Positions 14,581 through 47,640 are shown, counted from the stretch's first letter. The stretch is 64,000 nucleotides of DNA from Candidatus Dormiibacterota bacterium (GCA_049591595.1 JBAWFE010000027.1:149812-213811); one strand, 5' to 3'. A program made the numbers and translations. Notes: generated by a model not told the origin, from the letters alone.

Positions 14581-14936
14581 CACACTGCTCCCAGCCCACT
14601 GGACCAATGTCGTTTGGTCGTAGCGAGTGGCAGGTAGGAAGTCGGCCGGGCCAGAGGGAACACGGTGCCGCTGCCCAGGCTCAAGGATGGCTCCTCACGT
14701 CCGCCTGATCGCTGCGCAGCGACGGCCGCGCAAGCAGGCTAGCGCCCGCCCCTGAGGGGCAAACGCAGCCGAGCCAAAATGGATGCTTCACATCCCCCAG
14801 TTTCATGATGTGGCTGGAGCGTATCCGGGCCTGGTCACACCGCGTCCGTACAAACTGTGACGCTTCGGTAACAGCTTCTTTCACTTGTCCAGTTCAGGCC
14901 AGCTGCAGGCTAGCACGCAAAGGGGGCACCGAGTTC

Positions 14937-16432: not shown

Positions 16433-16433
16433 G

Positions 16434-17693: not shown

Positions 17694-17707
17694 CCGGGGC
17701 GCTGCTC

Positions 17708-27423: not shown

Positions 27424-27460
27424 GGGCCTGGCCCCATACCGAGACCTGGGAGGAATTCAA

Positions 27461-27706
27461 TTGGCGCTCGACACGTCTCACGCAATCGTGTACGCCGGGG
27501 CCATGATCGGCACCGGGGTAGGCGCCGTCGGTGCGGCCATAGGTGATGGTCTAGCCGGGGCGCAGCTGATCGCCGGAATTGCCCGGCAGCCGGAGGCTCA
27601 ATCCCGACTGCTGACCTGGACCTTCCTGACTGTTGGTCTGGCCGAAGCCGTGTACTTCATCAACCTGGCGTTGATGTTCGTCTTCATCAGTCTGGCCGGA
27701 AAGTAG
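27461..27706 (+). CDS. atpE: F-type ATP synthase subunit c
   Basis: [62 protein letters not shown] with the ion-binding Glu in LAEAV. RBS GGGAGG is 7 nt before TTG 27461; the ORF is open from 27392. Confidence 0.85.
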
Positions 27707-27716
27707 GCGATCCCGG

Positions 27717-28226
27717 GTGCCACTAGTCGCCGCCGCCAGCCCGCTATCGCTCAACCTGACCTTTCCCGTCGAGATCGTCGTCTTCCTGGCACTCCTGTAC
27801 CTGTTGGCGCGGTATGTCTTCCCGCCGATCGTCAAGGCTCTCGACGCCCGGAAGCAGCAGATCGCCCTGGCCCTGGCAGAGGCCGAGGCGGCACGCCGCG
27901 AGGTCGAGGAGGCCCGCCGCCAGGAGAAGACCGATCTGGCGGACGCCCGGCGCCAGGCCCAGGAGATCCTCGACAAGGCCCAGAAGCTCGGTGAGGAGCT
28001 CCGCGAAGAGCTGCGCCAGAAGGGCCGGGAGGAGCAGGAGGCGATGCTCACCAGGGCCCGGGCCGAGCTCGCCCAGGAGAGAGAGCAGGCCGTCAGCCAA
28101 CTGCGGCGTCAGGTAGCCGACCTGGTGCTTTCGGCCACCCAGAAGATCCTTGAAGAGGAGCTCGACCCGAAGCGTCAGCGCCGCCTCATCGACGAGGCCC
28201 TGGCGGAGGTCGAGCTGAGTGCCTGA
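27717..28226 (+). CDS. atpF: F-type ATP synthase subunit b
   Basis: Single N-terminal TM followed by a long charged coiled coil (EAEAARREVEEARRQE...). Confidence 0.85.
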   Translation: MPLVAAASPLSLNLTFPVEIVVFLALLYLLARYVFPPIVKALDARKQQIALALAEAEAARREVEEARRQEKTDLADARRQAQEILDKAQKLGEELREELRQKGREEQEAMLTRARAELAQEREQAVSQLRRQVADLVLSATQKILEEELDPKRQRRLIDEALAEVELSA

Positions 28227-28785
28227 CGCCCCCCGGGTCCCCAGTACCGCCCGCCATTACGCGGAGGCGGTCTTCCAGCTAGCCCAGGACGAGGGAGCGT
28301 TCGCGCCATGGCTAGCACGGTTGGGGCGGCTGCGCCAGCTGCTGGAGTCGAGCGACCTGGGCAAGACGCTCGCCGACCCCTCCCTCAGGATCGCCCAGAA
28401 GCTGGAGCTCTGCCGAGCGATCCTGACCGAGGACCGGGAGATCGACAAGCTGGCTGGCAACCTGCTCTTGGTGCTGGTGAGTAGCCAGCGCCAGCGACTA
28501 CTACCGGCGATCGAAGCCGGCTACCAGCAGCTGGTGGACAAGCGCGAGGGCCGGGTCCTGGCCCAGCTGACGACCGCAGTCCCGGTGAGTCCCGCCGAGC
28601 AGACGGAGCTGGCGCAGAAGCTCTCGGAGCGGCTCCGACTCGATGTCAGATTCGAGGCCAAGGTTGACCCCGCCCTCTTGGGCGGGGCAGTGGTGCGGGT
28701 GGGAGATCGGGTTTTCGACGCGAGCCTGACCACCCGGCTCCAGCAGTTACGCCAGGACCTGCTTTCTCAAGTGCCAAATAGATGA
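28219..28785 (+). CDS. atpH: F-type ATP synthase subunit delta (OSCP)
   Basis: OSCP-like 188 aa protein between atpF and atpA. Confidence 0.85.
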
Positions 28786-28792
28786 GGAAAAC

Positions 28793-30328
<1,536 letters not shown>

Positions 30329-30336
30329 ACAGCCAC

Positions 30337-32836
<2,500 letters not shown>

Positions 32837-32837
32837 C

Positions 32838-33260
32838 TTGGCCGTCCCCACCAGGCTGCTGGCGGCCGTAAGGCCGCTCTTCGAGGGTGACTGCGACTTC
32901 ATCGTGGCCAGAGGCTCCGACGGCGAACTCGGGGTGCTGCCTGGCCATGCGCCGCTTCTCACCTGGCTCAAGCCCGGCGAGCTGATGCTGCGCCAAGGCC
33001 GTGACGAGCACTTTTTCTTCCTCGAAGGAGCCTACCTGGAGGTGCTCCGCGACCGGGTCTCGATCCTCGCCGATAGAGCTGTTCCCGTCAGCGAGATCGA
33101 CGCCGCCGCGGCGGAGGAGGCGAGGCGAGCCGCCCAGGAAGCCCTGGCCAGGACGACTAGTCCAGGGTCGGAGGAGTTGGCGGAGCTGCAAGGGGAGTTG
33201 GAGGTGGCGGAGTACCGGCTGCAGGCCGCCGAGCGCGACCGCCGGCGGCGCCGGGACTAG
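32838..33260 (+). CDS. atpC: F-type ATP synthase subunit epsilon
   Basis: GVLPGHAPLLTWLKPGELMLRQG is the beta-sandwich signature. C-terminal helical hairpin. TTG start 2 nt after the atpD stop. Confidence 0.85.
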   Translation: MAVPTRLLAAVRPLFEGDCDFIVARGSDGELGVLPGHAPLLTWLKPGELMLRQGRDEHFFFLEGAYLEVLRDRVSILADRAVPVSEIDAAAAEEARRAAQEALARTTSPGSEELAELQGELEVAEYRLQAAERDRRRRRD

Positions 33261-33320
33261 CGCTCTCCTCCGGGCTCGGTAACGACCCGGTCGCAGCCGG
33301 GCCCGGCAGGCAACCCGCCA

Positions 33321-33326
33321 TATACT
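33321..33326 (+). promoter_or_regulatory. candidate -10 hexamer TATACT placed 6 nt upstream of a GTG start (possible leaderless transcript)
   Basis: TATACT at 33321-33326 and GTG at 33333. TATACTC(C)GG also recurs at 40795 (upstream of flp) and 60038 (upstream of ftsE). Confidence 0.3.
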
Positions 33327-33332
33327 CGGCCG

Positions 33333-34124
33333 GTGCCAGGGGCCGGCGTCTCGCCCACTTCCATCTCTCCCGGTCCACTCACCGACGGCCCCGCGCGCCT
33401 GGAGGTGCTGGGGGTACCGGTGGACAGCTGCACCCTCCCACAAGCGCTGGCCCGCTGCGAAGCCGCAGCCACCCACGCACACGGTCCCTTGCAGGTGGTG
33501 ACCCTGAATCCGGAGATGGTCATGCAGGCGCGCCGGCAGCCCACCCTTGCTCAGGCGATCCGAGCTGCCGGGCTGATCCTCCCCGACGGTGCAGGGGTGG
33601 TCTGGGCAAGCCGCCGACTCGGGACGCCGGTCCCGGGGCGAATCGCGGGAGCTGACTTCCTGCACGACCTGGCGGGGCTGTCCGCCGACCGTGGCTGGTC
33701 GATCTTTCTGTTGGGGGCGGCTCCGGGAGTTGCCCAGGCGGCGGCCAATACGCTGGCGGAGACCCACCCGGGACTGCTGGTGGCCGGACTCTGGAGTGGC
33801 TCCCCAGACGAGAGTGAGGCGGTCGGCATCGCCGAGCGGATTCGGCAGTCTGGCGCCACCGTGCTGGCGGTCGCCTTCGGCGTGCCCCACCAGGATCTCT
33901 GGCTTGCTCACCACCTCGGCTCGACGGGGGCCCGGGTCGGAATCGGCGTGGGCGGCACGCTCGACTATCTCGCAGGCAGAGTGAGGCGGGCGCCCGAACC
34001 GCTGCGCAAGGCAGGGTTGGAGTGGAGCTTCCGACTGTTCCGCCAGCCCTGGCGACTACCGAGGATGCTCCGTGGTGCTCCCTTCTTTTGGGACGTGCTG
34101 AAGGAATCGCGGAGATCGTCCTGA
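33333..34124 (+). CDS. WecB/TagA/CpsF-family (GT26) glycosyltransferase
   Basis: LEVLGVPVDSCTLPQALARCEAA ... VVTLNPEMVMQARRQP ... ILPDGAGVVWASRRLG ... QDLWLAHH is GT26-collinear. Confidence 0.75.
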   Translation: MPGAGVSPTSISPGPLTDGPARLEVLGVPVDSCTLPQALARCEAAATHAHGPLQVVTLNPEMVMQARRQPTLAQAIRAAGLILPDGAGVVWASRRLGTPVPGRIAGADFLHDLAGLSADRGWSIFLLGAAPGVAQAAANTLAETHPGLLVAGLWSGSPDESEAVGIAERIRQSGATVLAVAFGVPHQDLWLAHHLGSTGARVGIGVGGTLDYLAGRVRRAPEPLRKAGLEWSFRLFRQPWRLPRMLRGAPFFWDVLKESRRSS

Positions 34125-34126
34125 CC

Positions 34127-34861
34127 TTGAGCGGAGGGCCGATCGAGCTCAGCCTTGTGCTGCCAGCCTATAACGAGGTGGTGCGGCTGCCGCCCTCTCT
34201 GGAGGCCATCCGCAAGTACCTGGACCTGGCGGGGAGACCGTACGAGGTGCTGGTGGTTGACGACGGGAGTTCAGATGGGACGCGGCGGATGGTGGAGCAG
34301 GTCATGGCGGACTGGCCCCAACTTCAGCTGATCGTCTTCGATCGCAACGAGGGCAAGGGGGCAGCCGTCCGAGCCGGCATGCTGCAGGCGGTCGGGCAGC
34401 TCCGGCTGTTCAGCGATGCCGACCTCTCGACCCCGATCTCGGAAATGGGAAAGCTGGAGACCGCGATCGCCAAAGGGGCGGGGGTGGCGATCGGGTCTCG
34501 GGCGCTTCCTGAATCCCAGGTTGAGCTACACCAGCCGCTCTATCGAGAGCTGATGGGCAAGACCTACAACCAGGCCCTGCGCCGACTGGTCCTTCCCGGG
34601 CTGAGGGACACCCAGTGCGGCTTCAAGATGTTCACTGCCGCCGCCGCCCAGAGCTGCTTCGCTCCGCTGCGGACGCCGGGCTTCGGCTTCGACGCCGAGG
34701 TGCTGCTGCGGGCGCGGCTGCAGGCCATTCCCATCGCCGAGGTTCCCGTCATCTGGCGCAACGCCGTCGGCACTCGGGTCAGTTCGTTTCGCGATGGGGG
34801 GCTGATGCTGGCAGATCTGCTGCGCCTGCGTCGGCGCGTCGGCTCGGACCCCACGGCGTGA
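34127..34861 (+). CDS. GT2 polyprenol-phosphate mannosyltransferase-like (Ppm/DPM1-like synthase)
   Basis: LSLVLPAYNE ... YEVLVVDDGSSDGT ... DADLS. The TTG start is 3 nt after the GT26 stop. Confidence 0.7.
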   Translation: MSGGPIELSLVLPAYNEVVRLPPSLEAIRKYLDLAGRPYEVLVVDDGSSDGTRRMVEQVMADWPQLQLIVFDRNEGKGAAVRAGMLQAVGQLRLFSDADLSTPISEMGKLETAIAKGAGVAIGSRALPESQVELHQPLYRELMGKTYNQALRRLVLPGLRDTQCGFKMFTAAAAQSCFAPLRTPGFGFDAEVLLRARLQAIPIAEVPVIWRNAVGTRVSSFRDGGLMLADLLRLRRRVGSDPTA

Positions 34862-36411
34862 GCCAGGAGCTGTCGCCTCGGCGCCAAGGGCTGGGGCCCG
34901 GGTTCTTCGACCTCGACCGGGCGGCCGGCTGGGCCCACGCGTTGCTTCGAGCGACCTCAGGTCGAGGGTGGTCGATCGCCGCTGCTGGGACGTTGGTCAT
35001 CGGAGGCGCGGCCGCCGGACTGCACGCCCCGACTTCGGGGGCGTGGTTCTGGCACGTGGCGAACGGAGAGCTGATCAGCCGCCACGGGCTAAGCGGCACC
35101 GCGCTGTCCCTGGCCCGACCGGGAGCGGTGCTCGACCTGCGCAGCTGGCTGGCCGATCTGGGGCTCTTCCTCATATATAGGAGCACCGGCCTCGTTGGTC
35201 TCGCGGTGACTGGCGCCGTCGCGGGCGCTCTGATCGGCGGTTGCCTGATCCTTGCGATCAGGGCTACCGCCAGGTCTCACCCGTTGGTGGCCCTCCTAGC
35301 TGGGGGGCTCGGACTTGGAGCCTTGGCACCGGTCATCACTGATTTGTCTTCGGAGCTGCTCGCCGTCCTCGCCGCCCTCTTGGTTCTCACCTTGACCTTT
35401 GCCGGGAGGCGGAGCTGGTGGGGAGCCGGTGCCGCGGTGGCGTTGATCGTCGTCTGGACCAATGCCCAGGCGGACGCCGGGATTGCCGTGGTGGTCATCT
35501 GGGGGTGGGTGGTCCTGGGCCACTGGGACGCCAACCGGCCGGGGCGCCCGACCGCGCCGAGCTGGTGGGTGATCCCGCTCGCCGGGGTGGCCCTGATCCT
35601 AAGTCCGAGGGGGATTGGTGCGGTCGCCCAGCTGCCGCTGAGCCTGGGTATGCAGGGCGAGAATCCGCTCTTGGCAGCGTGGTCCAGCATCAACTTCCAT
35701 CCCTGGACCGCCCGGGTGGCGGAGCTGGCGGGGATGGTGCTGTTGGTCGCGTACTGGCTCGCGGGTTCACGACTCCGCCGCACGGACGCCTTTCTGGGGC
35801 TCGGCACCGGCGTGCTGGCCCTCCTGTGGGCCAATTACCTGCCCTGGTTTCTGGTGGTGGCCGCAGTCCAGAGCAGCTGGTACCTGTCGGTAGCTTGGCT
35901 GCCGCGCGGGGCGGTCGATGGCTTGGCACCCACCTCCAGTCAAAGGGGAGGTGCAGGGAGTCACCGGGCCGCCGTGGCCGCGGCGATTCCGATCCTGATC
36001 GCGATTCTTGTGCTGGGATCCGGGTTGGCGGCTGTCTCAAGGCGGGGAGGGGTCAGCGGGCAGACTAAGGCTCAACTTCCGGTCCAGGCGGCGCGCTGGT
36101 TGGCTGTCCACCCGGCTCGCGGCGCCTGGTTCACCACCCCGAGCTTCGGAGACTATCTGAGCAGTCGGTTCCCCTCCGGTCACAATTTACTTTGCATCGA
36201 CGACCCCGTGCCCATGGCAGGCGCGGCGCTGGGTCAGTGCGAGGCGCTAGCGGAGCTCAATGCGGGATCCCTTGCGATCCTGCGGTCCCTGGGGGCGAAG
36301 CTGGCGGTCCTGCCCAGGGCCGCGCCGGCGGCCGCTTTCCTGCGAGCTGAGGGATGGGAGATCCGGTATCGTGACCCCACCACGGTGGTTCTAGCGCCCA
36401 GGAATCTCTAA
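34858..36411 (+). CDS. polytopic membrane protein (paralog of 37974-39566; possible GT-C-type glycosyltransferase)
   Basis: The GTG start overlaps the Ppm-like gene stop (GTGA). >10 predicted TM helices. WFWHVANGELI motif and a C-terminal soluble domain PVQAARWL...FGDYLS...WEIRYRD shared with the paralog. Confidence 0.5.
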   Translation: MSQELSPRRQGLGPGFFDLDRAAGWAHALLRATSGRGWSIAAAGTLVIGGAAAGLHAPTSGAWFWHVANGELISRHGLSGTALSLARPGAVLDLRSWLADLGLFLIYRSTGLVGLAVTGAVAGALIGGCLILAIRATARSHPLVALLAGGLGLGALAPVITDLSSELLAVLAALLVLTLTFAGRRSWWGAGAAVALIVVWTNAQADAGIAVVVIWGWVVLGHWDANRPGRPTAPSWWVIPLAGVALILSPRGIGAVAQLPLSLGMQGENPLLAAWSSINFHPWTARVAELAGMVLLVAYWLAGSRLRRTDAFLGLGTGVLALLWANYLPWFLVVAAVQSSWYLSVAWLPRGAVDGLAPTSSQRGGAGSHRAAVAAAIPILIAILVLGSGLAAVSRRGGVSGQTKAQLPVQAARWLAVHPARGAWFTTPSFGDYLSSRFPSGHNLLCIDDPVPMAGAALGQCEALAELNAGSLAILRSLGAKLAVLPRAAPAAAFLRAEGWEIRYRDPTTVVLAPRNL

Positions 36412-36460
36412 GCCACTTCGGCTACGATCCGGGCAGATCGATCGGCTCAGGCAGGAGAAC

Positions 36461-37432
36461 ATGTCCAAAAAGTCGATGGCCGCCCGGCGGCAGATGCGGG
36501 AGGCGGCGGCCGAGGGCCGGGTAGCCGGGTCCCGCCAGCAGACTCGCGGCCGGACCAAAGGCCGTAACTACCGCCGCAACACCTCCGGGCGGCCGTGGGG
36601 TCTGATCTCCGCAGTGGTCGGGGTGGTCGCGGTCTTCGTGATCGTGGTGGTGCTCATCGACGGCTCCGTCCAGGGCGCCTTGAAACAGGACACCCAGGTG
36701 CTGCCCGCGCCCGCATCTTTGGTGAGCGCGCTGGGTCACATTCCGGCGAAGACCCTGGACGCCGTGGCGGGGGGGAGTATCGCTAACTATCCGGTCAATA
36801 TCCCGGCCTCATACAAGCCGGTGGCGCTTAGCGCCAAGGGGCTGCCTGAGTTGGCCTTCGTCGGCGCGGAGTATTGCCCTTTCTGCGCAGTCCAGCGCTG
36901 GTCCCTGATCATTGGACTGAGCCCATTCGGCACGTGGTCGGGGTTACACATAATCCGGTCGTCGGTGTACGACACTCCGTCCAACCTGCCCACTTTCACT
37001 TTCGCCTATGGTGCGAAATTCAAGAGCAAATATCTAAACTTCTCGACCCGCGAACTCGAGAGCAACGTGTCAATAAACAAGGACGGTTCGCCCTACAAAT
37101 CCCTGCAAGCGATAACCGGCGAGCTGGAATCCGCCTTTACCAACATCGGCTCTGGGGGATACCCCTTTTTGGACTACGCCGGTAAAGTGGCCCAGGCGGG
37201 CAGCGAGGAGGGGAGCAGCTCGACCGACGTGGCCGCGTTGCAGGGCCTGAGCTGGAACCAGGTATTGACCCACTTGCGTAATAACCCCAATTCGGCGATA
37301 AGCCAGGTGGTCTTGGGCGGGGCCAACTATGTGACGGCGGCCACCTGCAGCATGACGGGCAATAAGCCCGCGGCGGTCTGCAACAGCTCGAGGATCAAGA
37401 CCCTGGAGAGTCAAGTGGCCGCGAGCGCGTGA
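36461..37432 (+). CDS. thioredoxin-fold protein with CPFC active site (DsbA-like; resembles DUF929)
   Basis: N-terminal Arg-rich cytoplasmic tail, one TM (LISAVVGVVAVFVIVVVLI), then FVGAEYCPFCAVQRWSLI (CxxC). RBS AGGAGA before the ATG. Confidence 0.5.
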   Translation: MSKKSMAARRQMREAAAEGRVAGSRQQTRGRTKGRNYRRNTSGRPWGLISAVVGVVAVFVIVVVLIDGSVQGALKQDTQVLPAPASLVSALGHIPAKTLDAVAGGSIANYPVNIPASYKPVALSAKGLPELAFVGAEYCPFCAVQRWSLIIGLSPFGTWSGLHIIRSSVYDTPSNLPTFTFAYGAKFKSKYLNFSTRELESNVSINKDGSPYKSLQAITGELESAFTNIGSGGYPFLDYAGKVAQAGSEEGSSSTDVAALQGLSWNQVLTHLRNNPNSAISQVVLGGANYVTAATCSMTGNKPAAVCNSSRIKTLESQVAASA

Positions 37433-37962
37433 GCAAATCTCGGAGTCGTCGACGGATGGTGCCGGCCACCGCCGGAGCCGACTCGGGAACTGAGCTCAGA
37501 TCCCCCGATGAGCGCTCTGAGTCGTCGCCGCTGGGGGCGGTGGCACTGGTCGTGCTCGCTCTCGTTGGAATGGGTCTTGCGGGGTACCTGACGGCGGTCC
37601 ACTATGCCCCCACGCTGTTGGTCTGCAGCAACAGCGGGGTGATCAACTGTGAGGCAGTACTGACCAGTAGCTTCTCGCTGATCCCGGGCACCTCGATTCC
37701 CATCACCGTGCCTGGGCTGGCCTTCTTCCTAGTCAGCTTGGCGCTGGCGGGGTCGCAGCTGCGTCGGCCGGAGAACTATCAGCTCCGCCAGGCCCACGCG
37801 GTGTGGGGAGGTCTGGGTCTGCTGACCGCGCTCTACTTGGTGTTTGTGGAAGTGATGGAGGTGCACAACATTTGCCTCTGGTGCTCCTGCGTGCATCTGA
37901 CCCTCCTGCTCACCTTCCTCATCACTCTATGGCGCCTCTACCCCAAGCCGAACGCCCGGTAA
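37429..37962 (+). CDS. vitamin K epoxide reductase (VKOR) family membrane oxidoreductase
   Basis: 4 TM. Loop cysteine pair CSNSGVINC and CxxC at the start of the last TM (CLWCSC). The GTG start overlaps the upstream stop (GTGA). Confidence 0.65.
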   Translation: MSKSRSRRRMVPATAGADSGTELRSPDERSESSPLGAVALVVLALVGMGLAGYLTAVHYAPTLLVCSNSGVINCEAVLTSSFSLIPGTSIPITVPGLAFFLVSLALAGSQLRRPENYQLRQAHAVWGGLGLLTALYLVFVEVMEVHNICLWCSCVHLTLLLTFLITLWRLYPKPNAR

Positions 37963-37973
37963 AACTGTGCTGG

Positions 37974-39566
37974 TCAGGGCAGGGCCCTGGCCTGGCTGGC
38001 ACAGGCGGCGATACCTCTGGACCGCCAGCTGGCCGCCGTAGGGTTGGCGGGCAGGTGCAGGGTGCTGAGCAGGCTGGTCCGCTCAAAACCCTCGACCCGG
38101 CGGTCCCGGTAGACGAGGGTCCACTCCTTCGATTGCTGAAGCGCATCCGGGAAGGCGGTGCCCCGTTCGAACACGACCACCTGGGAGGGGCTGGAGTCGA
38201 GGTTTTTGAGCCAGTTGGGGCTCAAGTCGATAATCGAGGCGTAGCGCTCCAGCAGCTGGCTGCCCATCAGCGCTGCGTCACCGAAGATGAACACCTTGTC
38301 CTTCGGCACTGAGTAAGCGAGGAAGCCACCGTCACCGTACTGGTTGAAGATGCGCAGCTGCCCCGGTGCGGAATCAAGCCACCTCGCGGCGCAGACGGGA
38401 AAGGAGTTGATGTAGGTCGAGGAGTTCAGCGCCGGGCTACCGCCGGTGTCCACCTGGACAGTCAGGAGGGCCAGTAGGAAGACGAACTCCAGCAGCTCGA
38501 CCAAAATCACCACCGGCGGCTGGCGCAGCCTCAGGTGGGGACGCCACCGTCGGGCCAGGTCAAGTCGGGCGCGGTCAGCCAGATTGATCCAGACAGGGGC
38601 GCCGGCCGCCAAGAGGAAGACACTGTTGCGTACCGACTGGAGGGTGAGGAAGAGGCTCAGGGCCAGCACTAGCCCGTCGCGCAGCGAGATCGATCGATAC
38701 CGGACCAGAAGCACCCCCAGGCTGAGGATGAAGATCAAAAGGGGGAGCAGCACCGCCGCGTGAAAGTCCGGGCTCTGCCACTCCTGGATCAGCGCCTGCT
38801 GGGCGGTGTTGAACTGTGTCTCGAAGGGGTAGGCGATGATCGCCGGTCCGTTGGGGTTGAGCAGGCATACAGCAACCGAGCAGCCGGTCGCCCATCCGAG
38901 TTGCACGATCCGATGTCGGTCTAGGGCGGACCGGCGCCGGGCCAGGACCAGGCCGCCCTCCACCACCATGATGGCCAGCAGGAAGATCAGCCCAAGGATG
39001 AATCCGGCATGCAGGTTGGACCAGATCAGGAAGATCGGGGGTAGCAGCCAGGCGGCGAACCCACCCCGCCGCAGTTGACGCTCCGCCAAGAGGAGCACCA
39101 ACGCCGTGAGCATGTATGAATCCATCTGGGAGCGCGGTCCCAGGATCGGATAGGCGGCCAGAGCTGCCAGCAGGATGCCCACCGCTAGGGTCGCGCCGTG
39201 GGCGGGTCCCAGCTCTCGGGATCGCAGCCAGATGAGCAGGAACAGGGCCAGGGTAATCAGCTCGTAGACGATCACCACACCTAAGCGGCCGGAGGCGGCG
39301 GCGACTGCCGCCATCCAGGACTCACTCAGCCACTCCTGCATCACCCAGTGGCGACCCACCGCCATGAAGGCGTACGGGTTGACGTGGATGAGAGCGTTGG
39401 TGGCCAGCAGGGTCTTGCCGTTCCGCAGGTGCCACCAGAAGTCCGGGTCCGAGACCTCGGGTCGTGCCAGGAGCATGGCCGCCAGGAGCCCACTCAGGGC
39501 GAGGAACCGAGGCAAGGTCAACCACTGGCGCCGCGTGGTCGCCCGCCTCAGCTGATCCGGTGGCAC
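37974..39566 (-). CDS. polytopic membrane protein (paralog of 34858-36411)
   Basis: DFWWHLRNGKTL / IHVNPYAF motifs, >10 TM, and a C-terminal domain PVCAARWL...YGDGGFLA...WTLVYRD matching the paralog. Confidence 0.5.
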   Translation of the reverse strand: MPPDQLRRATTRRQWLTLPRFLALSGLLAAMLLARPEVSDPDFWWHLRNGKTLLATNALIHVNPYAFMAVGRHWVMQEWLSESWMAAVAAASGRLGVVIVYELITLALFLLIWLRSRELGPAHGATLAVGILLAALAAYPILGPRSQMDSYMLTALVLLLAERQLRRGGFAAWLLPPIFLIWSNLHAGFILGLIFLLAIMVVEGGLVLARRRSALDRHRIVQLGWATGCSVAVCLLNPNGPAIIAYPFETQFNTAQQALIQEWQSPDFHAAVLLPLLIFILSLGVLLVRYRSISLRDGLVLALSLFLTLQSVRNSVFLLAAGAPVWINLADRARLDLARRWRPHLRLRQPPVVILVELLEFVFLLALLTVQVDTGGSPALNSSTYINSFPVCAARWLDSAPGQLRIFNQYGDGGFLAYSVPKDKVFIFGDAALMGSQLLERYASIIDLSPNWLKNLDSSPSQVVVFERGTAFPDALQQSKEWTLVYRDRRVEGFERTSLLSTLHLPANPTAASWRSRGIAACASQARALP

Positions 39567-39679
39567 GTCATATCCCGAGCGATCACGGGCGCCAGTGTAG
39601 GTGGGGCCGGCGGCCCCTCACTGTGGCGTCGCCTGACCAGCCCCGGGCATTTCTTTGGGCCACCACGTACCCTTTGGGC

Positions 39680-40741
39680 GTGGCCGCTCGACCCCAGTCG
39701 CCCGTCGCGTCTCCTCTCGGGGAGCTCCAGCTGGTCCTGGAGGAGGAGGTGCTCCGGGTGGAGAACGCCCTCCTCACCATCGACGAGGAGGTCATGCAGC
39801 TGCTCTCCGCCCTGGACCAGGTCGGGGACCGGCTGGAGGACTCCGACATCGTGCGCCGCCATGTCCTGCGTGACCACGCGCGCTTCACTTCCGCCGAGGT
39901 GGAGGCCGCCATCGGTCGCTGCTTCGCTTTGAGATCAGAGATGACCTTGGCTAGGCTGCGCCTCGCCCACTGTCGGAGCTGGGCGAAGGAGTTGCGCTAC
40001 TGGCACTCCCTGATGAAGGCAGCCGCCGAACAGTTGGAGGACCACCGACCTCCCGACGGCACCCTGGAGGAGGGTCTGGCGCGCTATCGAAGCGCGTCGC
40101 GGCAGGTCTTCCAGACCATCGACGAGGAGCGGATGCGGATTGCCCGGGATATGCACGACGGACCCGCTCAGTCGATGTCCAATCTGGTGCTTCGGGCCGA
40201 GATTCTCGAGCGCATGGTCGATCGGGAGCCAGAGCGGGCCAAAGCGGAGGTTCAGAGCTTCAAGGATGCGATGAAGGGGGTGTTGGACGAGACCAGACAG
40301 CTGATCTTCGACCTGCGCCCTATGACCCTTGACGACCTTGGGGTGATTCCGACTCTGCGACGGCTGGTCAACGAGTTCCGGGACGCGGAGGGGATCGAGG
40401 GCCGGCTCTCGGTGATCGGAACTGAACGGCGACTCCCGGCGGCCACCGAGGGAGCTCTCTTCCGGATCGTCAAGGAAGCTCTGGTCAACGTCCGCAAGCA
40501 CGCTCGAGCGCACAGCCTGGATGTACTAATTAATTTGCAGCCGCAGCGGGTGAGCGCGGTCATCAAGGACGATGGGGATGGCTTCGACCTAGCGGCGGTG
40601 GAGGTGCGGCTTGCTCGCGAACCACACTTCGGACTGATCTCGATGCGGGAGCGCGCCGACCTCGAGCAAGGTCAACTGGAAATCCTCTCCCAGGTCGGCC
40701 GAGGCACCGAAGTGCGAGTAACGCTGCCGATCGAACCGTGA
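39680..40741 (+). CDS. cytoplasmic sensor histidine kinase (HisKA_3 + HATPase_c, DegS/NarX-type)
   Basis: H-box RMRIARDMHDGPAQSMSNL, an N-terminal coiled coil, no TM segment, and an ATPase G-box region DDGDGF. Start uncertain (TTG 39674 or GTG 39680). Confidence 0.7.
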   Translation: MAARPQSPVASPLGELQLVLEEEVLRVENALLTIDEEVMQLLSALDQVGDRLEDSDIVRRHVLRDHARFTSAEVEAAIGRCFALRSEMTLARLRLAHCRSWAKELRYWHSLMKAAAEQLEDHRPPDGTLEEGLARYRSASRQVFQTIDEERMRIARDMHDGPAQSMSNLVLRAEILERMVDREPERAKAEVQSFKDAMKGVLDETRQLIFDLRPMTLDDLGVIPTLRRLVNEFRDAEGIEGRLSVIGTERRLPAATEGALFRIVKEALVNVRKHARAHSLDVLINLQPQRVSAVIKDDGDGFDLAAVEVRLAREPHFGLISMRERADLEQGQLEILSQVGRGTEVRVTLPIEP

Positions 40742-40868
40742 TTCCTGACAGGAAAGTTACGCAGCGGTTACACGGATTGCTGGCTACCTGACCATATACT
40801 CCGGCTGCCATAGCTAGGCCTAGGGATTCAGTTTCCTAGATTGAGAACGGCAAGGAGGTCTGAAAGGT

Positions 40869-41072
40869 ATGCTCGGAAGTTGGTACGTACGGCTGCGTGA
40901 CCGGATCGGTCAGGTAGTCTCGCACCGCGACTCGGACGAAGAGGGCCAGGGGATGGTTGAGTACGCGTTGATCCTGGTGCTGATCGCGATCGTTGTCATC
41001 GTTATCCTCACTGTGGTGGGACACCGCGTCAGCGACGTCTTCTCCAACATCAACACTGGTCTCGGCGGCTGA
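40869..41072 (+). CDS. flp: Flp-family type IVc prepilin
   Basis: GQGMVEYALILVLIAIVVIVILTVVG matches the Flp motif G/xxxxEY followed by a hydrophobic helix. AAGGAGG RBS 7 nt upstream. 67 aa. Confidence 0.65.
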   Translation: MLGSWYVRLRDRIGQVVSHRDSDEEGQGMVEYALILVLIAIVVIVILTVVGHRVSDVFSNINTGLGG

Positions 41073-41176
41073 TTCGTCGTAGCACTCAAGCGCGCGGCGG
41101 GGCGACCCGCCGCGCGTTTGTCCAATCCACCCAACGGCCCCGCGGCCCGCGGTAATCCCAGCGGAGGTTTTCGACG

Positions 41177-42328
41177 GTGACGACCGATTTGAAAGGACGG
41201 GTCAATCAGGTCTGGATCGCCATAGGGCTGATCCTCGCGATCCTCGCGTTCGGCGCGGCTTATTACTTCACTCGCGCCAACACCAATAACACTCGAGTGG
41301 CCCCGGCCACCGGCCAGTTGGTGGTGATCGCGAAGGTCTCGATCCCCAGCGGTACGCTGATCACCGCCGGCATGCTCGAGGAGACCCGGATCAAGGGTCT
41401 GCTACCCCTCGATTCGTACAGCTCGTGTGTGCAACTCGTGCGCACCGCCTGTGCTGCAACTGCCGGTGTGTCGGCATCGCAGTCGACGTCAACCTCCGCC
41501 TCGGACTATTACGCCGTCGTTCCGATCACCCCCAACACGGTGATCACTCAGAACAACGTCTCCGTAAACCGAGCAACCCAGTCACCATCTTTCGGCAACT
41601 TGAATCTGCCGGCTGGTGAAGTTGCCGTGGCTATTCCGATTACCGCCGCGGAGTCGGTCGCCGGCTACCTCCAGGTGGGTGACCGGATTGACATCATCGG
41701 TCTTGACTCGAGCGGAAACACCGACTTCACCTTCGAGGACCTTCCGGTGATCAGCATCGGATCTCCGTCGACGGCGACCGGGGCAGCGAGCAGCTCGTCA
41801 GGCGGCGGACTGATCGTTCTTCAGCTGACGCGCAGCGAGGCCCTTGGCGTGACCGAGATGGTCAACGACGGTTCCATATACACGATCGCGCTGCGGTCCA
41901 GTGCGGACTACGGCCACGGCTACATTCCGATCACTTCGACGCCGGCTGACGAGTACACCCAGGCCTGCGTGGCGGGGAGCTCCGTCAACCCGATCATCCA
42001 AGAGGACATGCAGACGGCTCAGCTGTCGGTCACGGCGGCGTCCAAGACCTACACCACCGCCCACAAGCAATACAACAAGGACAACACCGCGCTGCAGAGC
42101 ATGTCGGGCACCGGCTCGGCCGAGCAGGCCGCCAAGGCCCAAGTGCTCACGGATGCGGCCACCTTGGCCCAGGATCAGTTCGCCCTGATCGAGGCCCAGA
42201 ATGAGCTGGCTTCCGACCAAGCGGTCCTGTACTGCGGATCCACCAATGCCGCCAGCTCGTCATCGTCGGCGGGCAACAATTCCGGTAGCTCGCAGATGCT
42301 GCAGAACCTCTTTGGCTTCAAACCCTGA
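41177..42328 (+). CDS. cpaB: CpaB/RcpC-family Flp pilus assembly protein with C-terminal extension
   Basis: N-terminal TM (WIAIGLILAILAFGAAYYF) then a SAF-like region QLVVIAKVSIPSGTLITAGML. ~150 aa extra C-terminal coiled coil and Ser-rich tail. Confidence 0.6.
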   Translation: MTTDLKGRVNQVWIAIGLILAILAFGAAYYFTRANTNNTRVAPATGQLVVIAKVSIPSGTLITAGMLEETRIKGLLPLDSYSSCVQLVRTACAATAGVSASQSTSTSASDYYAVVPITPNTVITQNNVSVNRATQSPSFGNLNLPAGEVAVAIPITAAESVAGYLQVGDRIDIIGLDSSGNTDFTFEDLPVISIGSPSTATGAASSSSGGGLIVLQLTRSEALGVTEMVNDGSIYTIALRSSADYGHGYIPITSTPADEYTQACVAGSSVNPIIQEDMQTAQLSVTAASKTYTTAHKQYNKDNTALQSMSGTGSAEQAAKAQVLTDAATLAQDQFALIEAQNELASDQAVLYCGSTNAASSSSSAGNNSGSSQMLQNLFGFKP

Positions 42329-42367
42329 TCCTGAGGGACGAGCGCACCTCAGGGTAGCCGGTAGTTC

Positions 42368-43627
42368 GTGAGCACCACGGTGGCGGATAAGACCGTCATC
42401 CGCGTGGTGGTGGTCGACGACATCGCCAGCACCCGAGAGAACCTCAAGAAGTTGCTCTCCTTCGAGGAGGACATTGAGGTTGTCGGGACCGCTGGCGATG
42501 GCCGGACCGGCATCGACGTGACCCGGCAACTCTCGCCGCACGTGGTGCTGATGGACGTCAACATGCCGGGAATGGACGGGATCGCCGCGACTGAGACCCT
42601 GGCAGTGGAATCGCCCAACTCCCCGGTCGTGATCATGTCCGTCCAGGGGGAGCGGGACTACCTGCGCCGCGCGATGCAGTCGGGTGCTCGGGAGTTCCTC
42701 ATCAAGCCCTTCACCGGCGACGAGCTGGTGTCCAGCATCCGCCGGGTCTACGAGATGGAGGAGAAGAAGGGATCCTACCTGCCGCGCCAGCCTCCCCCCC
42801 AGGAGCAGGTAGGCGACCTGCCCCCAACCGGTTGCCAGGTGTGTCTGGTTCTCAGCGGGAAGGGGGGCTGCGGCAAGACCTTCTTGGCCATCAACCTCGC
42901 CGCCGCCCTGCGGACGGAGACGGGCGGTCGGGTCTGCCTGGTCGATCTCGATCTCCAGTTCGGCGACATCGGCGTGATGCTCAATTTGGACCACGCCAAG
43001 ACGATCACCGAACTGGTGGACAGCGAGAGTGCGTTGGACTGGGAGTTCGTCGACGACATCCTGGCCGATGGTCCAGAGGGGATTCGGGTCCTGCTGGGTC
43101 CCTTCAGCCCGGAGTTCGGGGACCTAGTCCGGGCGGAGCATGTGCGCGCCATCGTCGACGTTCTGCGACGAGAGTTTGACTATGTCGTCGTGGACAGTGG
43201 GAGCCAACTATCGGAGGCTACCCTCGAAGCAACCGAGTTGGCCGATCACGTGATCGTGGTCGGTGAGCTCACTATTCCCGCGATCAAGGACACTCGCCTG
43301 ATGCTGAAGATGCTGGAGTCGCTCAAAGTGGACCGCTCGCGGGTCATGGTCGCGGTCAACGCCCATGACGCGCATGCCGTCTATGACGCAGCCAGCATCG
43401 AGCGCAATCTGCGGTTCCCGGTCAAGCTGCAGATACCCTCGGAGCCTCGCCTGGTGGGCGGATCGATCCATCGGGCGATCCCGCTGGTCGTCTCCCACCC
43501 GGATTCCGACATCTCCTTGCTCTTCCGCAACCTGGCCCGAAGCCTGGCACCGGAAGGGGCAGCTCAGCCTGAACTCAAGGCCGAGGCCAAGGCGCCCACC
43601 GCCCGTCGCTTCGGGCTTCGGCGCTAG
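42368..43627 (+). CDS. tadZ: TadZ/CpaE: response-regulator receiver fused to a MinD/ParA-like ATPase
   Basis: REC domain with an intact phospho-acceptor region (VVVDD...VVLMDVNMPGMDG...FLIKPF), then a deviant Walker A LSGKGGCGKTFLAINLAAAL. Confidence 0.75.
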   Translation: MSTTVADKTVIRVVVVDDIASTRENLKKLLSFEEDIEVVGTAGDGRTGIDVTRQLSPHVVLMDVNMPGMDGIAATETLAVESPNSPVVIMSVQGERDYLRRAMQSGAREFLIKPFTGDELVSSIRRVYEMEEKKGSYLPRQPPPQEQVGDLPPTGCQVCLVLSGKGGCGKTFLAINLAAALRTETGGRVCLVDLDLQFGDIGVMLNLDHAKTITELVDSESALDWEFVDDILADGPEGIRVLLGPFSPEFGDLVRAEHVRAIVDVLRREFDYVVVDSGSQLSEATLEATELADHVIVVGELTIPAIKDTRLMLKMLESLKVDRSRVMVAVNAHDAHAVYDAASIERNLRFPVKLQIPSEPRLVGGSIHRAIPLVVSHPDSDISLLFRNLARSLAPEGAAQPELKAEAKAPTARRFGLRR

Positions 43628-43653
43628 GCCCAGTCGAGGAGTACTGCCAGGCC

Positions 43654-45225
43654 ATGTCACTGCTGGAGAGAGTTCGGACCAAGGACGGATCGGAGCCGGA
43701 GCCCGGCCCCGAAGTGTCCGCGCCAGTCGAGGAGAAGCCCAAGGCCAGGACGCCTGAGCCGGCAGCTGCGGCCCCCCCCGCTCCACCTCCCGCTGCTCCT
43801 TCTCGCCTAGCGGCCGCCCTGGCTGCCGCCAAGCCTCCGGCCGTAGCCGCCCCGGCCAAGTCGCCAGGATGGCGGGAGCGGTCCCAGACCAATCGGGAGA
43901 ACCCCTCGGCGGTGGTCGAGCCCCGGGCGGCTCATCACCCGCAGTACATGTCGATCAAGGCGCGGGTGACCCAGGCCCTACTGGAGGAGTACACCGACGT
44001 CTCCCAGGCGCCCCGCGAGCGGTTGGTCGCCAAGATCGGGGAGCTCTGCAATTCGGTCCTGGAAGAGCTGAGCATTTCGATCACCCGCACCGATCGGCAG
44101 CGGATGGTGGAGCAGCTGATCAGCGACGTGCTCGGCCTGGGCCCGCTGGAGATGATTCTCAAGGACCCGGAGATCAGCGAAATCATGATCAACGGCCCGG
44201 AGGATGTCTACGTCGAGCGCCAGGGAAGGATCTATCGCTACCCGGCCAAGTTCGACAACACGGACCACCTGATGCAGATCATCGACCGGATCGTCAGCTC
44301 GATCGGACGCCGAGTCGATGAGAGCTCGCCGATGGTGGACGCCAGACTCAAAGACGGCTCCCGGGTCAACGTGATCATCCCGCCGCTGGCGCTCCAGGGA
44401 CCGACTTTGACCATCCGGCGCTTCTCCAAGGACCCCTACACGGTGGAGGATCTGATCAACTTCGGAACTCTCACCGCTGAGATGGCGACGTTCATCCGGG
44501 CCTGCGTGCGGGCCAGGTTCAACGTGCTGATCTCAGGAGGCACCGGGTCCGGTAAGACGACCACTCTGAACGTGCTCTCCGGCTGGATCCCCGACGACGA
44601 GCGGATCATCACAATTGAGGACGCAGCCGAGTTGCAGCTGCGCCAAGACCACGTTGTGACCCTGGAGTCGCGCCCCTCCAACATCGAGGGCCGAGGACGG
44701 GTCAGCATTCGTGATCTGGTCATCAACAGCCTGCGGATGCGGCCGGATCGGATCGTCGTCGGTGAGTGTCGGGGAGGTGAGGCCCTGGATATGCTCCAGG
44801 CGATGAACACAGGCCACGACGGCTCACTTACCACTGTTCACGCCAACACTCCAGCCGACGCTTTGACCCGACTGGAGACCATGACGTTGATGGCCGGCAC
44901 CGACCTCCCGTCGCGGGCCATCCGCGAGCAGATCGCGTCGGCTATCCACCTGGTGGTTCAGCAAGCTCGCCTTCGCGATGGCACCCGGCGCATCATCGCC
45001 ATCTCCGAAGTCCGGGGCTTCGACGGGGAACGGGTCGAGATCGCGGACATCTTCCAGTACCGCCAGAAGGGCCTCGATGACCAGGGGATGGTGATCGGCC
45101 AGTTCGAAGCGGTCCAGGTTCCCAAGCGCCTCGATGATCTGGCCGCCGCTGGCGAGGGGTTGGAGGAATCGCTGTTTGCTCCTCCTTCCAAGGGCAAAAT
45201 AGCAGCAGGAGAGACCGCCGCATGA
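43654..45225 (+). CDS. tadA: CpaF/TadA secretion ATPase (VirB11/PilB superfamily) with Pro/Ala-rich N-terminal extension
   Basis: Walker [24 protein letters not shown], Asp/His boxes [17 protein letters not shown]. ~130-aa low-complexity N-terminus. Confidence 0.9.
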   Translation: MSLLERVRTKDGSEPEPGPEVSAPVEEKPKARTPEPAAAAPPAPPPAAPSRLAAALAAAKPPAVAAPAKSPGWRERSQTNRENPSAVVEPRAAHHPQYMSIKARVTQALLEEYTDVSQAPRERLVAKIGELCNSVLEELSISITRTDRQRMVEQLISDVLGLGPLEMILKDPEISEIMINGPEDVYVERQGRIYRYPAKFDNTDHLMQIIDRIVSSIGRRVDESSPMVDARLKDGSRVNVIIPPLALQGPTLTIRRFSKDPYTVEDLINFGTLTAEMATFIRACVRARFNVLISGGTGSGKTTTLNVLSGWIPDDERIITIEDAAELQLRQDHVVTLESRPSNIEGRGRVSIRDLVINSLRMRPDRIVVGECRGGEALDMLQAMNTGHDGSLTTVHANTPADALTRLETMTLMAGTDLPSRAIREQIASAIHLVVQQARLRDGTRRIIAISEVRGFDGERVEIADIFQYRQKGLDDQGMVIGQFEAVQVPKRLDDLAAAGEGLEESLFAPPSKGKIAAGETAA

Positions 45226-46253
45226 ACGCTCTAGTACTGGTCCTGGACGGGGTCGGTGCCTTGGCCTTGGGAGCCGCGGTCGCCTACCTGCTCGCCTCCT
45301 GGCGCTCGAAGTCGGGAAGTGCCGACATGGATGAGCGGGTGCGCCGCTTCGCCGAAGCCGGCGCCGGACTGGCGATCTCCGTCCCCGGTGATGAGGACTT
45401 TGGCGAATCGGCCGGCAGCCTGCAGGATCGAGCCAAGAAGCTGCTGGCGCGGCTGCGCCGCCAGGTTGAAGGAGGCAGTAAGGCGGCGGGCGTAGCCCAG
45501 CGACCTAGGTCGGTGCAAGTGGCGGAGGCGTTGGCGCGGGCTGATGTCAAGCTGCGACCGACAGAGTGGTATCTGATTCGAATCGGGGCGGTGGTGCTGC
45601 TGGCGCTGATCGGTCTCGCCCTCTACCGCAGCCTCATCTTCGCGCTCATCCTCGGAGTGATCGGTGTCTTCGTTCCTCCGTTGGTGCTGCGCTTTCGAGC
45701 CCGACGCCGCCTCGGCCGCTTCAATGACCAGCTCGGGGACACCCTGATCCTCCTCAGCAACGCGCTCAAGGCCGGTTACAGCTTTCCCCAGGCGATGGCC
45801 AGCATCGCCCGCTCGGCGCCACCGCCGACCTCGGAGGAGTTCGCCCGGGCAACCCGGGAGGTGCAGCTGGGGGTGACCACCGACGCGGCGCTCACCCACA
45901 TGGTCCATCGGATCCAGTCCGACGACCTCGACCTGGTAGTTACCGCCGTGCAGATTCAGCGCGTCGTGGGCGGCAATCTGGCCGAGATCTTCGACAACAT
46001 CGCCTTCACCATCCGGGAGCGTATCCGGATCAAGGGTGAGATCAAGACCCTGACCGCCCAGGCCCGGGCCTCGAGCTTCATCATCACCGGATTGCCGATC
46101 GGCTTGGGACTGATCCTGGAGGCGATCAACCCCAACTACATCGCCCCCCTGCTCTCCTTCAAGGGCCCTGGTCCGTACATCCTGATTGGATGCCTGATCT
46201 CCATTGCCTTCGCCTTCTACGTGATGCAGCGCATCGCCAACATCGAGGTCTGA
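45222..46253 (+). CDS. tadB: TadB (T2SS-F domain inner-membrane platform protein)
   Basis: T2SSF-like domain. 4-nt overlap with tadA. Confidence 0.8.
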   Translation: MNALVLVLDGVGALALGAAVAYLLASWRSKSGSADMDERVRRFAEAGAGLAISVPGDEDFGESAGSLQDRAKKLLARLRRQVEGGSKAAGVAQRPRSVQVAEALARADVKLRPTEWYLIRIGAVVLLALIGLALYRSLIFALILGVIGVFVPPLVLRFRARRRLGRFNDQLGDTLILLSNALKAGYSFPQAMASIARSAPPPTSEEFARATREVQLGVTTDAALTHMVHRIQSDDLDLVVTAVQIQRVVGGNLAEIFDNIAFTIRERIRIKGEIKTLTAQARASSFIITGLPIGLGLILEAINPNYIAPLLSFKGPGPYILIGCLISIAFAFYVMQRIANIEV

Positions 46254-46256
46254 GCG

Positions 46257-47174
46257 ATGTCTTATGAAGCGCTGATCGTCGGTTTGATCGCCGCCGCCGC
46301 GGTCTTCCTGGTCTTTGCCGGGCTGATCAAGCGCCAACCCCAGGTGAACCTCCTGGACGCGCGGCTCGCCGTGTATGACGAGCCAACAGGTCCCAGGACG
46401 CTCGATGAGATCGAGATGAGCCAGCCCTTCACGGAGCGCTTCCTGCGCCCCTTCTTCGACCGCATCGGTCGGCGGGTGGCGGCTCTTCAGCCGCGGGACC
46501 GCGCCCAGAAACTCCAGATTCTCATCGACCTGGCCGGCCGGCCGATGGGGATGAACGCGGGTAGCTTCGTGGCCGCCCAGATCGTGCTCGCAGTGCTGGG
46601 GGCCGTCGTGGGTCTCGGCCTGGCGGTCCTGCTTTCCTTGCCTTGGTTCCTCGGCTTGGTCTTCGGCGCCGTGCTCGGTTACATCGGCCCGCAGTACCAG
46701 CTGAAGCGGATCGTGAGCGCAAAGCAGAAGGAGATCTCGCTGGCGCTACCCAACGCCCTCGACCTCCTCTGCATCAGCGTGGAGGCCGGTCTGGGATTCG
46801 ACGCCGCCTTGGCTCGGGTGATCGAGAAATTTGATAACGCCCTCTCACGGGAATTCGCCTTCGTGCTCAACGAAATCCGGCTGGGGCGACCCCGCCACGA
46901 GGCGCTCGAGGATCTCGGCAAGCGCTCAGGGGTTCAGGAGCTGGCGTCCTTCATCCAGGCGCTGGTGCAGTCCGATCAACTTGGGGTGGGCATCGCCCGC
47001 GTTTTGCGCATCCAGTCCGACGAGATGCGCCGCCGCCGGCGTCAGAAGGCGGAGGCCAAGGCTCAGCAGGCGAGCCTGAAGATGCTCTTCCCGATGGTCG
47101 GCTGCATCTTCCCGGTGCTGTTCGTGATCCTGCTGGGTCCGCCGGCTGTGGCGTTGATCTTCCATGTCACCTAA
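46257..47174 (+). CDS. tadC: TadC (T2SS-F domain inner-membrane platform protein)
   Basis: Second T2SSF-like protein, 3 nt after tadB. Confidence 0.75.
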   Translation: MSYEALIVGLIAAAAVFLVFAGLIKRQPQVNLLDARLAVYDEPTGPRTLDEIEMSQPFTERFLRPFFDRIGRRVAALQPRDRAQKLQILIDLAGRPMGMNAGSFVAAQIVLAVLGAVVGLGLAVLLSLPWFLGLVFGAVLGYIGPQYQLKRIVSAKQKEISLALPNALDLLCISVEAGLGFDAALARVIEKFDNALSREFAFVLNEIRLGRPRHEALEDLGKRSGVQELASFIQALVQSDQLGVGIARVLRIQSDEMRRRRRQKAEAKAQQASLKMLFPMVGCIFPVLFVILLGPPAVALIFHVT

Positions 47175-47637: not shown

Positions 47638-47640
47638 TCA

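Follow-up and report, generated by a model that had tools for sequence, protein, structure and literature searches.

Many key cell-surface glycans are built by enzymes of the GT-C fold. The oligosaccharyltransferases (OSTs) of family GT66, AglB, STT3, and PglB, have 13 transmembrane (TM) helices, carry a WWDYG motif, and are associated with an N-x-S/T sequon. In the three-component systems GtrB/GtrA/Gtr*, CsbB/GtcA/YfhO, and ArnC/ArnEF/ArnT, a GT2 glycosyltransferase is encoded beside a GT-C protein and a flippase is present (PMC11127046; PMC5836110). TfpW, which serves the group IV type IVa pili of P. aeruginosa, is a GT-C protein that is encoded directly beside the pilin it arabinosylates and uses a polyprenyl-phosphate sugar donor (bioRxiv 10.1101/2020.04.19.049825). 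The locus described here lies in a stretch of 64,000 nucleotides from a Candidatus Dormiibacterota bacterium (GCA_049591595.1 JBAWFE010000027.1:149812-213811), called the window below. It centres on two membrane proteins, A and B (Table 1), of an unnamed GT-C family. A is encoded directly behind a putative polyprenyl-phosphate hexose synthase of family GT2, and B on the other strand, close to the genes of a Flp/Tad pilus. With modest confidence, the locus is on balance read as an extracytoplasmic glycosylation module in which B would be the working enzyme, a lipid-linked sugar the donor, and Flp/Tad proteins the likeliest acceptor.

An initial annotation of the window had described A and B as an inverted pair of polytopic proteins of ~520 amino acids with common terminal motifs. 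Both open reading frames (ORFs) are present, of 517 codons on the plus strand (A) and 530 on the minus strand (B), and their starts are backed by orthologs of the same length, one of which (P0121, 517 amino acids) is 99% identical to A. The N-terminal motif F/WWWH..NG reads DPDFWWHLRNG in B and SGAWFWHVANG in A. Further on, P-V-x-AARWL is represented by FPVCAARWL and LPVQAARWL, the GD motif by YGDGG and FGDY, and W..YRD by WTLVYRD and WEIRYRD, in B and A, respectively. The formal alignment that the annotation had proposed revealed homology: A and B are 22% identical across ~500 amino acids by BLASTP (E 2e-8), and an hhalign comparison of an alignment of 22 A-type sequences (A2) with one of 30 B-type sequences (A1) gave a probability of 99.45% (E 4e-22, 455 columns). 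A and B are distant paralogs, homologous over their whole length, far beyond chance. The window has a G+C content of ~65%, and the nearest relatives of both proteins come from Dormibacterota metagenome-assembled genomes (MAGs).

The fold of B was assigned from an AlphaFold2 (AF2) model and from fold searches made with that model. It has 11 TM helices and a long first outer loop, with the N-terminus inside and a C-terminal α/β domain outside the cytoplasm. This topology fits the positive-inside rule, since lysine and arginine make up 29% of the inner loops vs 6% of the short outer loops. The helix number lies within the 7 to 13 of polytopic GT-C folds, and solved GT-C proteins are matched. AglB, STT3, and PglB are the structures closest to the model, their C-terminal globular domain included; the fold of the extracytoplasmic core (CC) domain of OSTs is present in an AglB-like form. 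The comparison with GT-C folds, which the annotation had also proposed, did not return a transporter fold. That A and B are transporters or other non-enzymatic membrane proteins, with a superficial likeness to GT-C enzymes, might be argued from the lack of any sequence match in Pfam, NCBIfam, or the PDB; the fold search essentially refutes this idea, which is hardly credible.

Sequence libraries gave almost no signal. With A, B, and 40 relatives as queries, the STT3 model (PF02516) of Pfam/NCBIfam gave no match up to E values of 1 to 10, the Pfam models for PMT, PMT_2, GT87, and ArnT did not match A or B, and no PDB sequence was matched by A, B, or the family profiles. The sole library signal was a weak match to DUF6044 in 3 of 30 relatives (best E 0.0016).

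Conserved residues were tabulated from ~100 family ORFs of 85 loci aligned to the family profile; residue numbers such as D40 follow B. Near-invariant are D40-P-D42-x-W-W-H46, E78, E82, R145, Q147, W182-x-N184-x-H186, P238, I260-x-E262-W263, P266-x-F268-H269, R313, P390, A393, N408, Y410, G413-G414, and D488. Nearly all ORFs, from Dormibacterota to Chloroflexota and Acidobacteriota, keep this set, and B keeps every one of its residues. The prediction places all of its polar members on the outer face, either within loops or at the ends of helices. A DxD sequence directly after the first TM helix is the canonical catalytic position of GT-C enzymes, and B and its family have D40-P-D42 in the first loop. 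E262, in the I-x-E of a long later loop, and R313, in the turn between TM9 and TM10, presumably recall the TIXE glutamate and the pyrophosphate-binding arginine of PglB. D40xD42, I260-x-E262, and R313, invariant and predicted to face outward, are candidate counterparts of the catalytic acids and the pyrophosphate-binding Arg of OSTs.

The family is ranked as a GT-C family of its own, new and unnamed, whose build resembles that of OSTs. The family is not classed as OST because it lacks a match to STT3, has no WWDYG motif, and has ~11 instead of 13 TM helices. In place of WWDYG, F-N-x-Y-x-(W/D/E)-G-G-Y-L (typically FNxYxWGGYL) is found where the first strand of the C-terminal domain passes into a helix, and of this only the Y and a G could correspond; no obvious DK/MI motif is present.

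When 1.84 billion cluster representatives were searched with the family profile, 27,063 members were found at E ≤ 1e-3, 16,971 at ≤ 1e-10, and 3,543 at ≤ 1e-30. All the relatives listed are named "hypothetical protein" and have no precomputed Pfam domain, and neither Pfam nor NCBIfam holds a model of the family. With the motif IxEWx[SP]P[DN]F[HQ], at least 587 relatives were confirmed in the contigs of a GTDB set of one genome per species. The best 80 of these, from Dormibacterota, Chloroflexota, Acidobacteriota, and a few other MAGs, are the species loci used for all neighbourhood counts below; six-frame ORFs of the fetched loci were searched with the window proteins, and genes within 6 kb were taken as neighbours. 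Thousands of its members occur in phyla that are abundant in soil (Dormibacterota, Acidobacteriota, Chloroflexota), yet the family has neither a model, a name, nor an assigned function; it combines an OST-like architecture with a different acceptor-loop motif.

The gene upstream of A had been annotated as a Ppm-like GT2 preceded by a GT26 gene of the WecB/TagA type, and both assignments agree with the matches obtained. The best sequence matches of the GT2 among solved structures are all polyprenyl-phosphate sugar synthases: the dolichol-phosphate mannose synthase (DPMS) of P. furiosus (5mlz, 6e-18), ArnC (5e-15), and GtrB (4e-9). The upstream gene scores 134.9 bits with the NCBIfam model TIGR00696, against a cutoff of 69. 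The overlap of the GTG of A (34858-34860) with the stop codon of the GT2 (TGA, 34859-34861), as GTGA, was also found as annotated. The longest GT2 ORF starts at 34022 and overlaps WecG; the TTG at 34127 is the likelier start because it better fits the orthologs of 234 to 248 amino acids. Unlike DPMS 5mlz, ArnC, and GtrB, of which the latter two have C-terminal TM helices, the GT2 has no hydrophobic or predicted membrane segment, and by this sequence feature it is classed as a peripheral enzyme of the DPM1 type.

In 33 of the 80 loci, an ortholog of the GT2 (E 1e-55 to 1e-146) and WecG are both neighbours of a family member at distances of up to 6 kb; orthologous pairs of GT2 and GT-C genes number 33-34. 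This clustering is seen in at least four different gene orders, one of which is that of the window. Two adjacent family copies (B1 and B2) are followed by one further gene, the GT2, and WecG beside ribosomal genes in L004; in L021-L049 the order is GT-C, a membrane protein of 546 amino acids, a second GT2, GT2, and WecG; and in a Bacillota MAG (L050) it is GT-C, GT2, and WecG. In a Terriglobales locus without WecG (L070), the gene immediately 5' of the family gene is a GT2 ortholog. In the L021-L049 clade, the second GT2 is also TM-less and DPM1-like (241 amino acids) and overlaps the start of the 546-residue protein (L025 7507-9839), which is polytopic with a C-terminal soluble domain and has no Pfam or PDB match; the cluster thereby contains a further pair of a synthase and an uncharacterised membrane protein. 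This protein (L025 7507-9147) occupies an A-like position in a clade with a single family copy; it was considered as a hidden paralog and rejected, as hhalign probabilities with the A and B profiles did not exceed 1.3%.

As in the three-component systems, a GT2 is thus encoded beside a GT-C protein, and here the GT2 is DPMS/GtrB/ArnC-like and translationally coupled to it. The systems differ in that the GT-C copy coupled to the GT2 is the degenerate one (see below), the presumably active copy being encoded 1.5 kb away on the other strand. They also differ in the flippase, for which no gene of the GtrA, SMR, or MATE type was found in the 64-kb window; its small multi-TM ORFs are atpI-like, atpB, and VKOR only. 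Pairing with a polyprenyl-monophosphate sugar synthase likewise sets the family apart from GT66. It bears on the alternative that B is a true en bloc OST. The substrate would then be a polyprenyl-diphosphate oligosaccharide that is made by WecA, WecG, and perhaps the GT2, is flipped, and is moved whole by B onto a protein or wall acceptor, as AglB or PglB do. The closeness of B to AglB, STT3, and PglB, C-terminal globular domain included, the resemblance of the invariant DxD, IxE(W), and Arg to the metal/pyrophosphate site of OSTs, and the presence of a WecA-like gene in the window and of WecG in the operon would fit such an enzyme. It is nevertheless unlikely: apart from the features that keep the family from being classed as OST, the best matches of the GT2 make monophosphate-linked sugars, the GT87 and PMT_2 proteins encoded next to family members in Terriglobia, where WecG is absent, use monophosphate donors, and no flippase or Wzx gene is nearby.

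Paralog A has changed at the residues that are invariant elsewhere. Of the 14 invariant polar residues of the outer face, 10 are missing from it and its orthologs (D40, D42, E78, R145, Q147, H186, E262, R313, N408, and Y410), and D-P-D is replaced by S-G-A, which leaves the canonical first-loop position without acidic residues. Mostly structural positions are kept (W79, W182, N184, P238, W263, F268, H269, P390, A393, W482, Y486, and D488). A-type proteins are narrowly distributed, in 35 clusters that are all from the window's own clade.

Two adjacent paralogs are present in 16 of the 80 loci. The origin of A is suggested by sister clades, in which B1 is followed by B2 and the two are translationally coupled, with an overlap of 1-4 nucleotides in L004 and L005. 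The B2 copies show a graded loss of the motif: It is complete in L013 and L082, reads YGDEWWH in loci of the L005 type, and is DADADWR in L004, where E262 and R313 are lost as well. A occupies the B2 position beside the GT2. On the grounds of this position and of the graded motif loss, A is probably a descendant of B2 that has turned into a non-catalytic partner.

The initial annotation had assumed that both proteins are GT-C transferases. The GT-C fold and the coupling to a donor synthase hold, whereas A is probably non-catalytic and the nearest architecture is OST-like. The contrary case, two active transferases of different linkage or acceptor specificity, with the catalytic base of A relocated to D93 or D100, is rather doubtful. 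It is helped by the strong conservation of A (orthologs 41-85% identical, mean column identity 70%), by invariant polar residues of its own (R95, D100, N202, H281, R286, E289, D310, D432, and D506), and by its translational coupling to the donor synthase; moreover, GT-C families differ in where along the first loop the catalytic Asp is placed. However, the residues lost in A are invariant across phyla and include both first-loop Asp, E262, and R313, and the second paralogs of the sister clades lose the same residues stepwise. The model of A is of low confidence (predicted local distance difference test, pLDDT, 61.6), and the loops with these residues are among its poorly defined parts; STT3/PglB ranked first in its fold search with weak matches (E ≥ 7e-3), which serve as corroboration only.

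Most likely, a non-catalytic A would tether or assist the GT2 or pair with B. A partnership with B is conceivable because the ancestral pair was co-translated, and one with the GT2 because A is now coupled to this TM-less enzyme. TM-less polyprenyl-phosphate mannose synthases need a membrane partner: Human DPM1 works with DPM2/DPM3 and mycobacterial Ppm1 with Ppm2. In these systems, as proposed for the GT2 and A, a TM-less catalytic GT2 comes together with a co-expressed polytopic membrane protein, which is not necessarily catalytic itself; the partners differ, in that DPM3 and Ppm2 (Lnt-like) would have their counterpart here in a GT-C-fold paralog. A GT-C-fold subunit that is not a glycosyltransferase is also known in PIG-U/GAB1 of the glycosylphosphatidylinositol transamidase, a eukaryotic protein of an unrelated pathway to which the likeness of A is conceptual only. 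The A/B pair is a natural example of how a GT-C protein, here coupled to a donor synthase, turns into a probable pseudo-enzyme.

Genes for flp and/or Tad components lie within 6 kb of the family gene in 44 of the 80 loci. This link is the most telling result of the context analysis because it outlasts the synteny block of Dormibacterota. Direct adjacency to a pilin gene on the same strand, the arrangement of the TfpW/TfpO type, was found in L047, L075-L077, L081, L084, and L086-L088. Among these, six loci of Terriglobia (L077, L081, L084, L086-L088) have the family gene directly upstream of flp in the order family gene, 1-2 flp, rcpC, secretin, tadZ, cpaF, tadB/C; their family proteins share 55-58% identity or less, and 2-3 divergent GT87, PMT_2, or PAP2_3 genes flank the family gene. 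In MAG loci of Pyrinomonadaceae or Acidobacteriota (L047, L075, L076), 2-3 flp genes come after the GT-C gene, and then rcpC and a secretin gene. L050 has flp and the family gene in divergent orientation. For Dormibacterota, the window among them, the distance from the family gene to flp does not exceed ~1.3 kb, with a kinase gene in between; a divergent HisKA_3 kinase gene adjoins the family gene in 28 of the 80 loci, among them L004, L005, and most loci of Dormibacterota. The family gene is flanked by GT87 genes in several loci labelled Chloroflexi as well (L051, L054, L057, L058, L069). Since taxon labels given by submitters are unreliable, the claim that the link crosses phyla was made to rest on those loci that have a secretin gene and whose Flp sequences are distinct. 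MAG records labelled Micrarchaeia/Micrarchaeaceae, Acidoferrum, Acidiferrales, or Solibacter (L021, L023, L045, L053, P0059, P0126) carry family genes of the Dormibacterota type as well as Flp sequences identical to that type; their labels or binning are probably wrong.

From the conservation of this neighbourhood, a Flp pilin or another Tad component is tentatively proposed as the acceptor, a possibility to which we give somewhat less than equal weight. By its gene position, TfpW offers a precedent for a GT-C protein encoded beside a pilin, though it serves type IVa pili and not Flp/Tad pili. The family gene recurrently heads Flp/Tad operons, which points to a modification of these widespread adhesion pili that is so far undescribed, and the adjacency across several phyla suggests an undescribed system for the glycosylation of pili or of the envelope. 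In the literature, no precedent was found for a GT-C protein or other glycosyltransferase tied to Flp/Tad pili.

In an alternative reading, the acceptor would be a general glycopolymer of the envelope (secondary cell-wall polymer, lipoglycan, or a glycan linked to peptidoglycan), which the module would decorate much as GtrB/Gtr or CsbB/YfhO do; the adjacency to Tad genes would then be inherited synteny without function. WecA and WecG/TagA are classical linkage-unit enzymes, the operon lies in a housekeeping region (prmC-sua5-glyA-wecA-murA ... atp), members in Chloroflexota have housekeeping neighbours and no Tad genes, and the identity of the invariant residues across phyla would fit a universal acceptor; the three-component systems offer a precedent (PMC11127046; PMC5836110). 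Against this stands the recurrence of the Tad/flp adjacency in unrelated gene orders. Diderm Acidobacteriota that lack the atp/WecG/GT2 context still have the family gene directly upstream of flp on the same strand, and common descent from the arrangement in Dormibacterota is an unlikely explanation of this finding. An envelope glycopolymer as the acceptor is rated as rather improbable, below the pilus.

In the module favoured here, the GT2 would charge polyprenyl phosphate with a hexose at the cytoplasmic face, as homology to DPMS, ArnC, and GtrB suggests, and the lipid-linked sugar would cross to the outer face. There, B is predicted from its sequence to transfer the sugar from the polyprenyl-phosphate donor by means of a site of acidic and basic residues, while the AglB-like C-terminal domain seen in the model would hold the acceptor. 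The use of such a donor is suggested by context, namely the adjacent DPMS-like GT2 and the GT87 neighbours. GT87 enzymes would possibly extend the glycan. WecG and the WecA-like enzyme, which is the likely provider of the lipid-pyrophosphate-linked N-acetylhexosamine (HexNAc) substrate of WecG, may build a lipid-linked primer or a separate linkage unit for a wall polymer.

Several observations weigh against this module. Besides the missing flippase gene and the missing WWDYG motif, A retains two invariant first-loop acids, D93 and D100, and could still be catalytic. Members from Anaerolineales and other Chloroflexota have no Tad, GT2, or WecG neighbours, so the link to pili is not universal, and much of the synteny in Dormibacterota could be inherited and not selected. 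The Flp pilins encoded next to family members contain no N-x-S/T sequon. The Tad pilus of C. crescentus, the only one solved by cryo-electron microscopy, shows no glycan density (PMC10710030).

A connection to archaea can be imagined as well. Flp/Tad pili are thought to derive from archaeal filaments, which are themselves glycosylated by AglB. The family might then be a bacterial counterpart, possibly a descendant, of archaeal OSTs of the AglB type that travels with the archaeal-derived Tad/Flp machinery and glycosylates minimal pilins independently of a sequon; A would be a pseudo-GT-C protein that docks the TM-less synthase and might hand over or flip the donor, a step to which no protein of the locus is assigned. 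This scenario is quite improbable, and the evolutionary link to AglB in particular is an attractive speculation.

Table 1. Genes of the window that bear on the proposed glycosylation module (positions counted from the first nucleotide of the window)
Feature	Position	Strand	Basis or remark
WecA/TagO-like polyprenyl-phosphate HexNAc-1-phosphate transferase	17708-18805	+	PF00953, E 8e-34
WecG/TagA/CpsF family (GT26), opens the WecG-GT2-A string behind the atp operon	33333-34124	+	PF03808, E 2.3e-54
DPM1/DPMS-like GT2, putative polyprenyl-phosphate hexose synthase	34127-34861	+	PF00535, E 9e-25
Paralog A, GT-C-fold membrane protein, 517 amino acids	34858-36411	+	hhalign to B family
DUF929 protein between the paralogs	36461-37432	+	PF06053, E 1.6e-17; 4-nucleotide overlap onto VKOR
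VKOR-family membrane oxidoreductase (disulfide formation)	37429-37962	+	PF07884, E 6e-20
Paralog B, OST-like GT-C, 530 amino acids	37974-39566	-	all family-invariant residues kept
HisKA_3 sensor kinase, divergent from B	39464-40741	+	PF07730, PF02518
Flp prepilin, G/MVEY cleavage motif, candidate acceptor	40869-41072	+	translation
Tad assembly genes RcpC/CpaB, TadZ/CpaE, CpaF, TadB, TadC	41177-47174	+	Pfam matches
GT87-family GT-C (PimE-like)	53008-54474	+	PF09594, E 1e-14

The genes of Table 1 are embedded in the order prmC, sua5, glyA, WecA-like, murA ... atp operon, WecG, GT2, A, DUF929, VKOR, B (minus strand), HisKA_3 kinase, flp, rcpC, tadZ, cpaF, tadB, tadC ... ABC/FtsX pair, GT87, secA, which is kept in close relatives. 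A scan of 32800-41200 for promoters and terminators gave nothing above chance and did not delimit the operons. The housekeeping part (14805-20099) comprises prmC, sua5, glyA, the WecA-like GT4-family transferase gene, and murA. An ABC transporter and a GT4 gene on the minus strand (24812-25948) lie between murA and the atp operon (26300-33260), which is directly followed by WecG. This layout recalls the linkage of wecA and atp in Actinobacteria and Firmicutes.

The insertion of the DUF929 and VKOR genes (36461-37962) between the two paralogs is particular to this clade, and the synteny of DUF929 is kept in L001-L003 and L006-L011. VKOR probably stands outside the glycosylation chemistry. The outer C-terminal domain contains invariant cysteines, C392 and C522 in the orthologs of B and C446 and C461 in those of A, which could be disulfide substrates of the DUF929/VKOR pair. 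The kinase ORF overlaps the 5' end of B by ~100 nucleotides, on account of which its true start is probably later than 39464. A response regulator gene lies directly 5' of the family gene in L005.

Beyond TadC, the Tad cluster extends (47164-48834) with genes for a DUF192 protein, a second ATPase of the T2SSE type (397 amino acids), and a protein of 279 amino acids with no Pfam match. The GT87 gene ends a tightly packed, co-directional flp-Tad-ABC/FtsX string just before secA. In several loci of Dormibacterota, the family gene begins within the end of a membrane methyltransferase gene of the ICMT/PEMT family (L004 7280-8011; L025 5249-5965); the window has no such gene. In a locus of Chloroflexia (L055), the family gene (8472-10085) follows that of a primary sigma factor, and a weak match to the UbiA-family prenyltransferases (below the Pfam cutoff) and a short-chain dehydrogenase are encoded ~1 kb downstream on the other strand. 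These two proteins, in a single case and with the prenyltransferase below the cutoff, presumably recall decaprenyl-phosphoribose synthase and DprE2.

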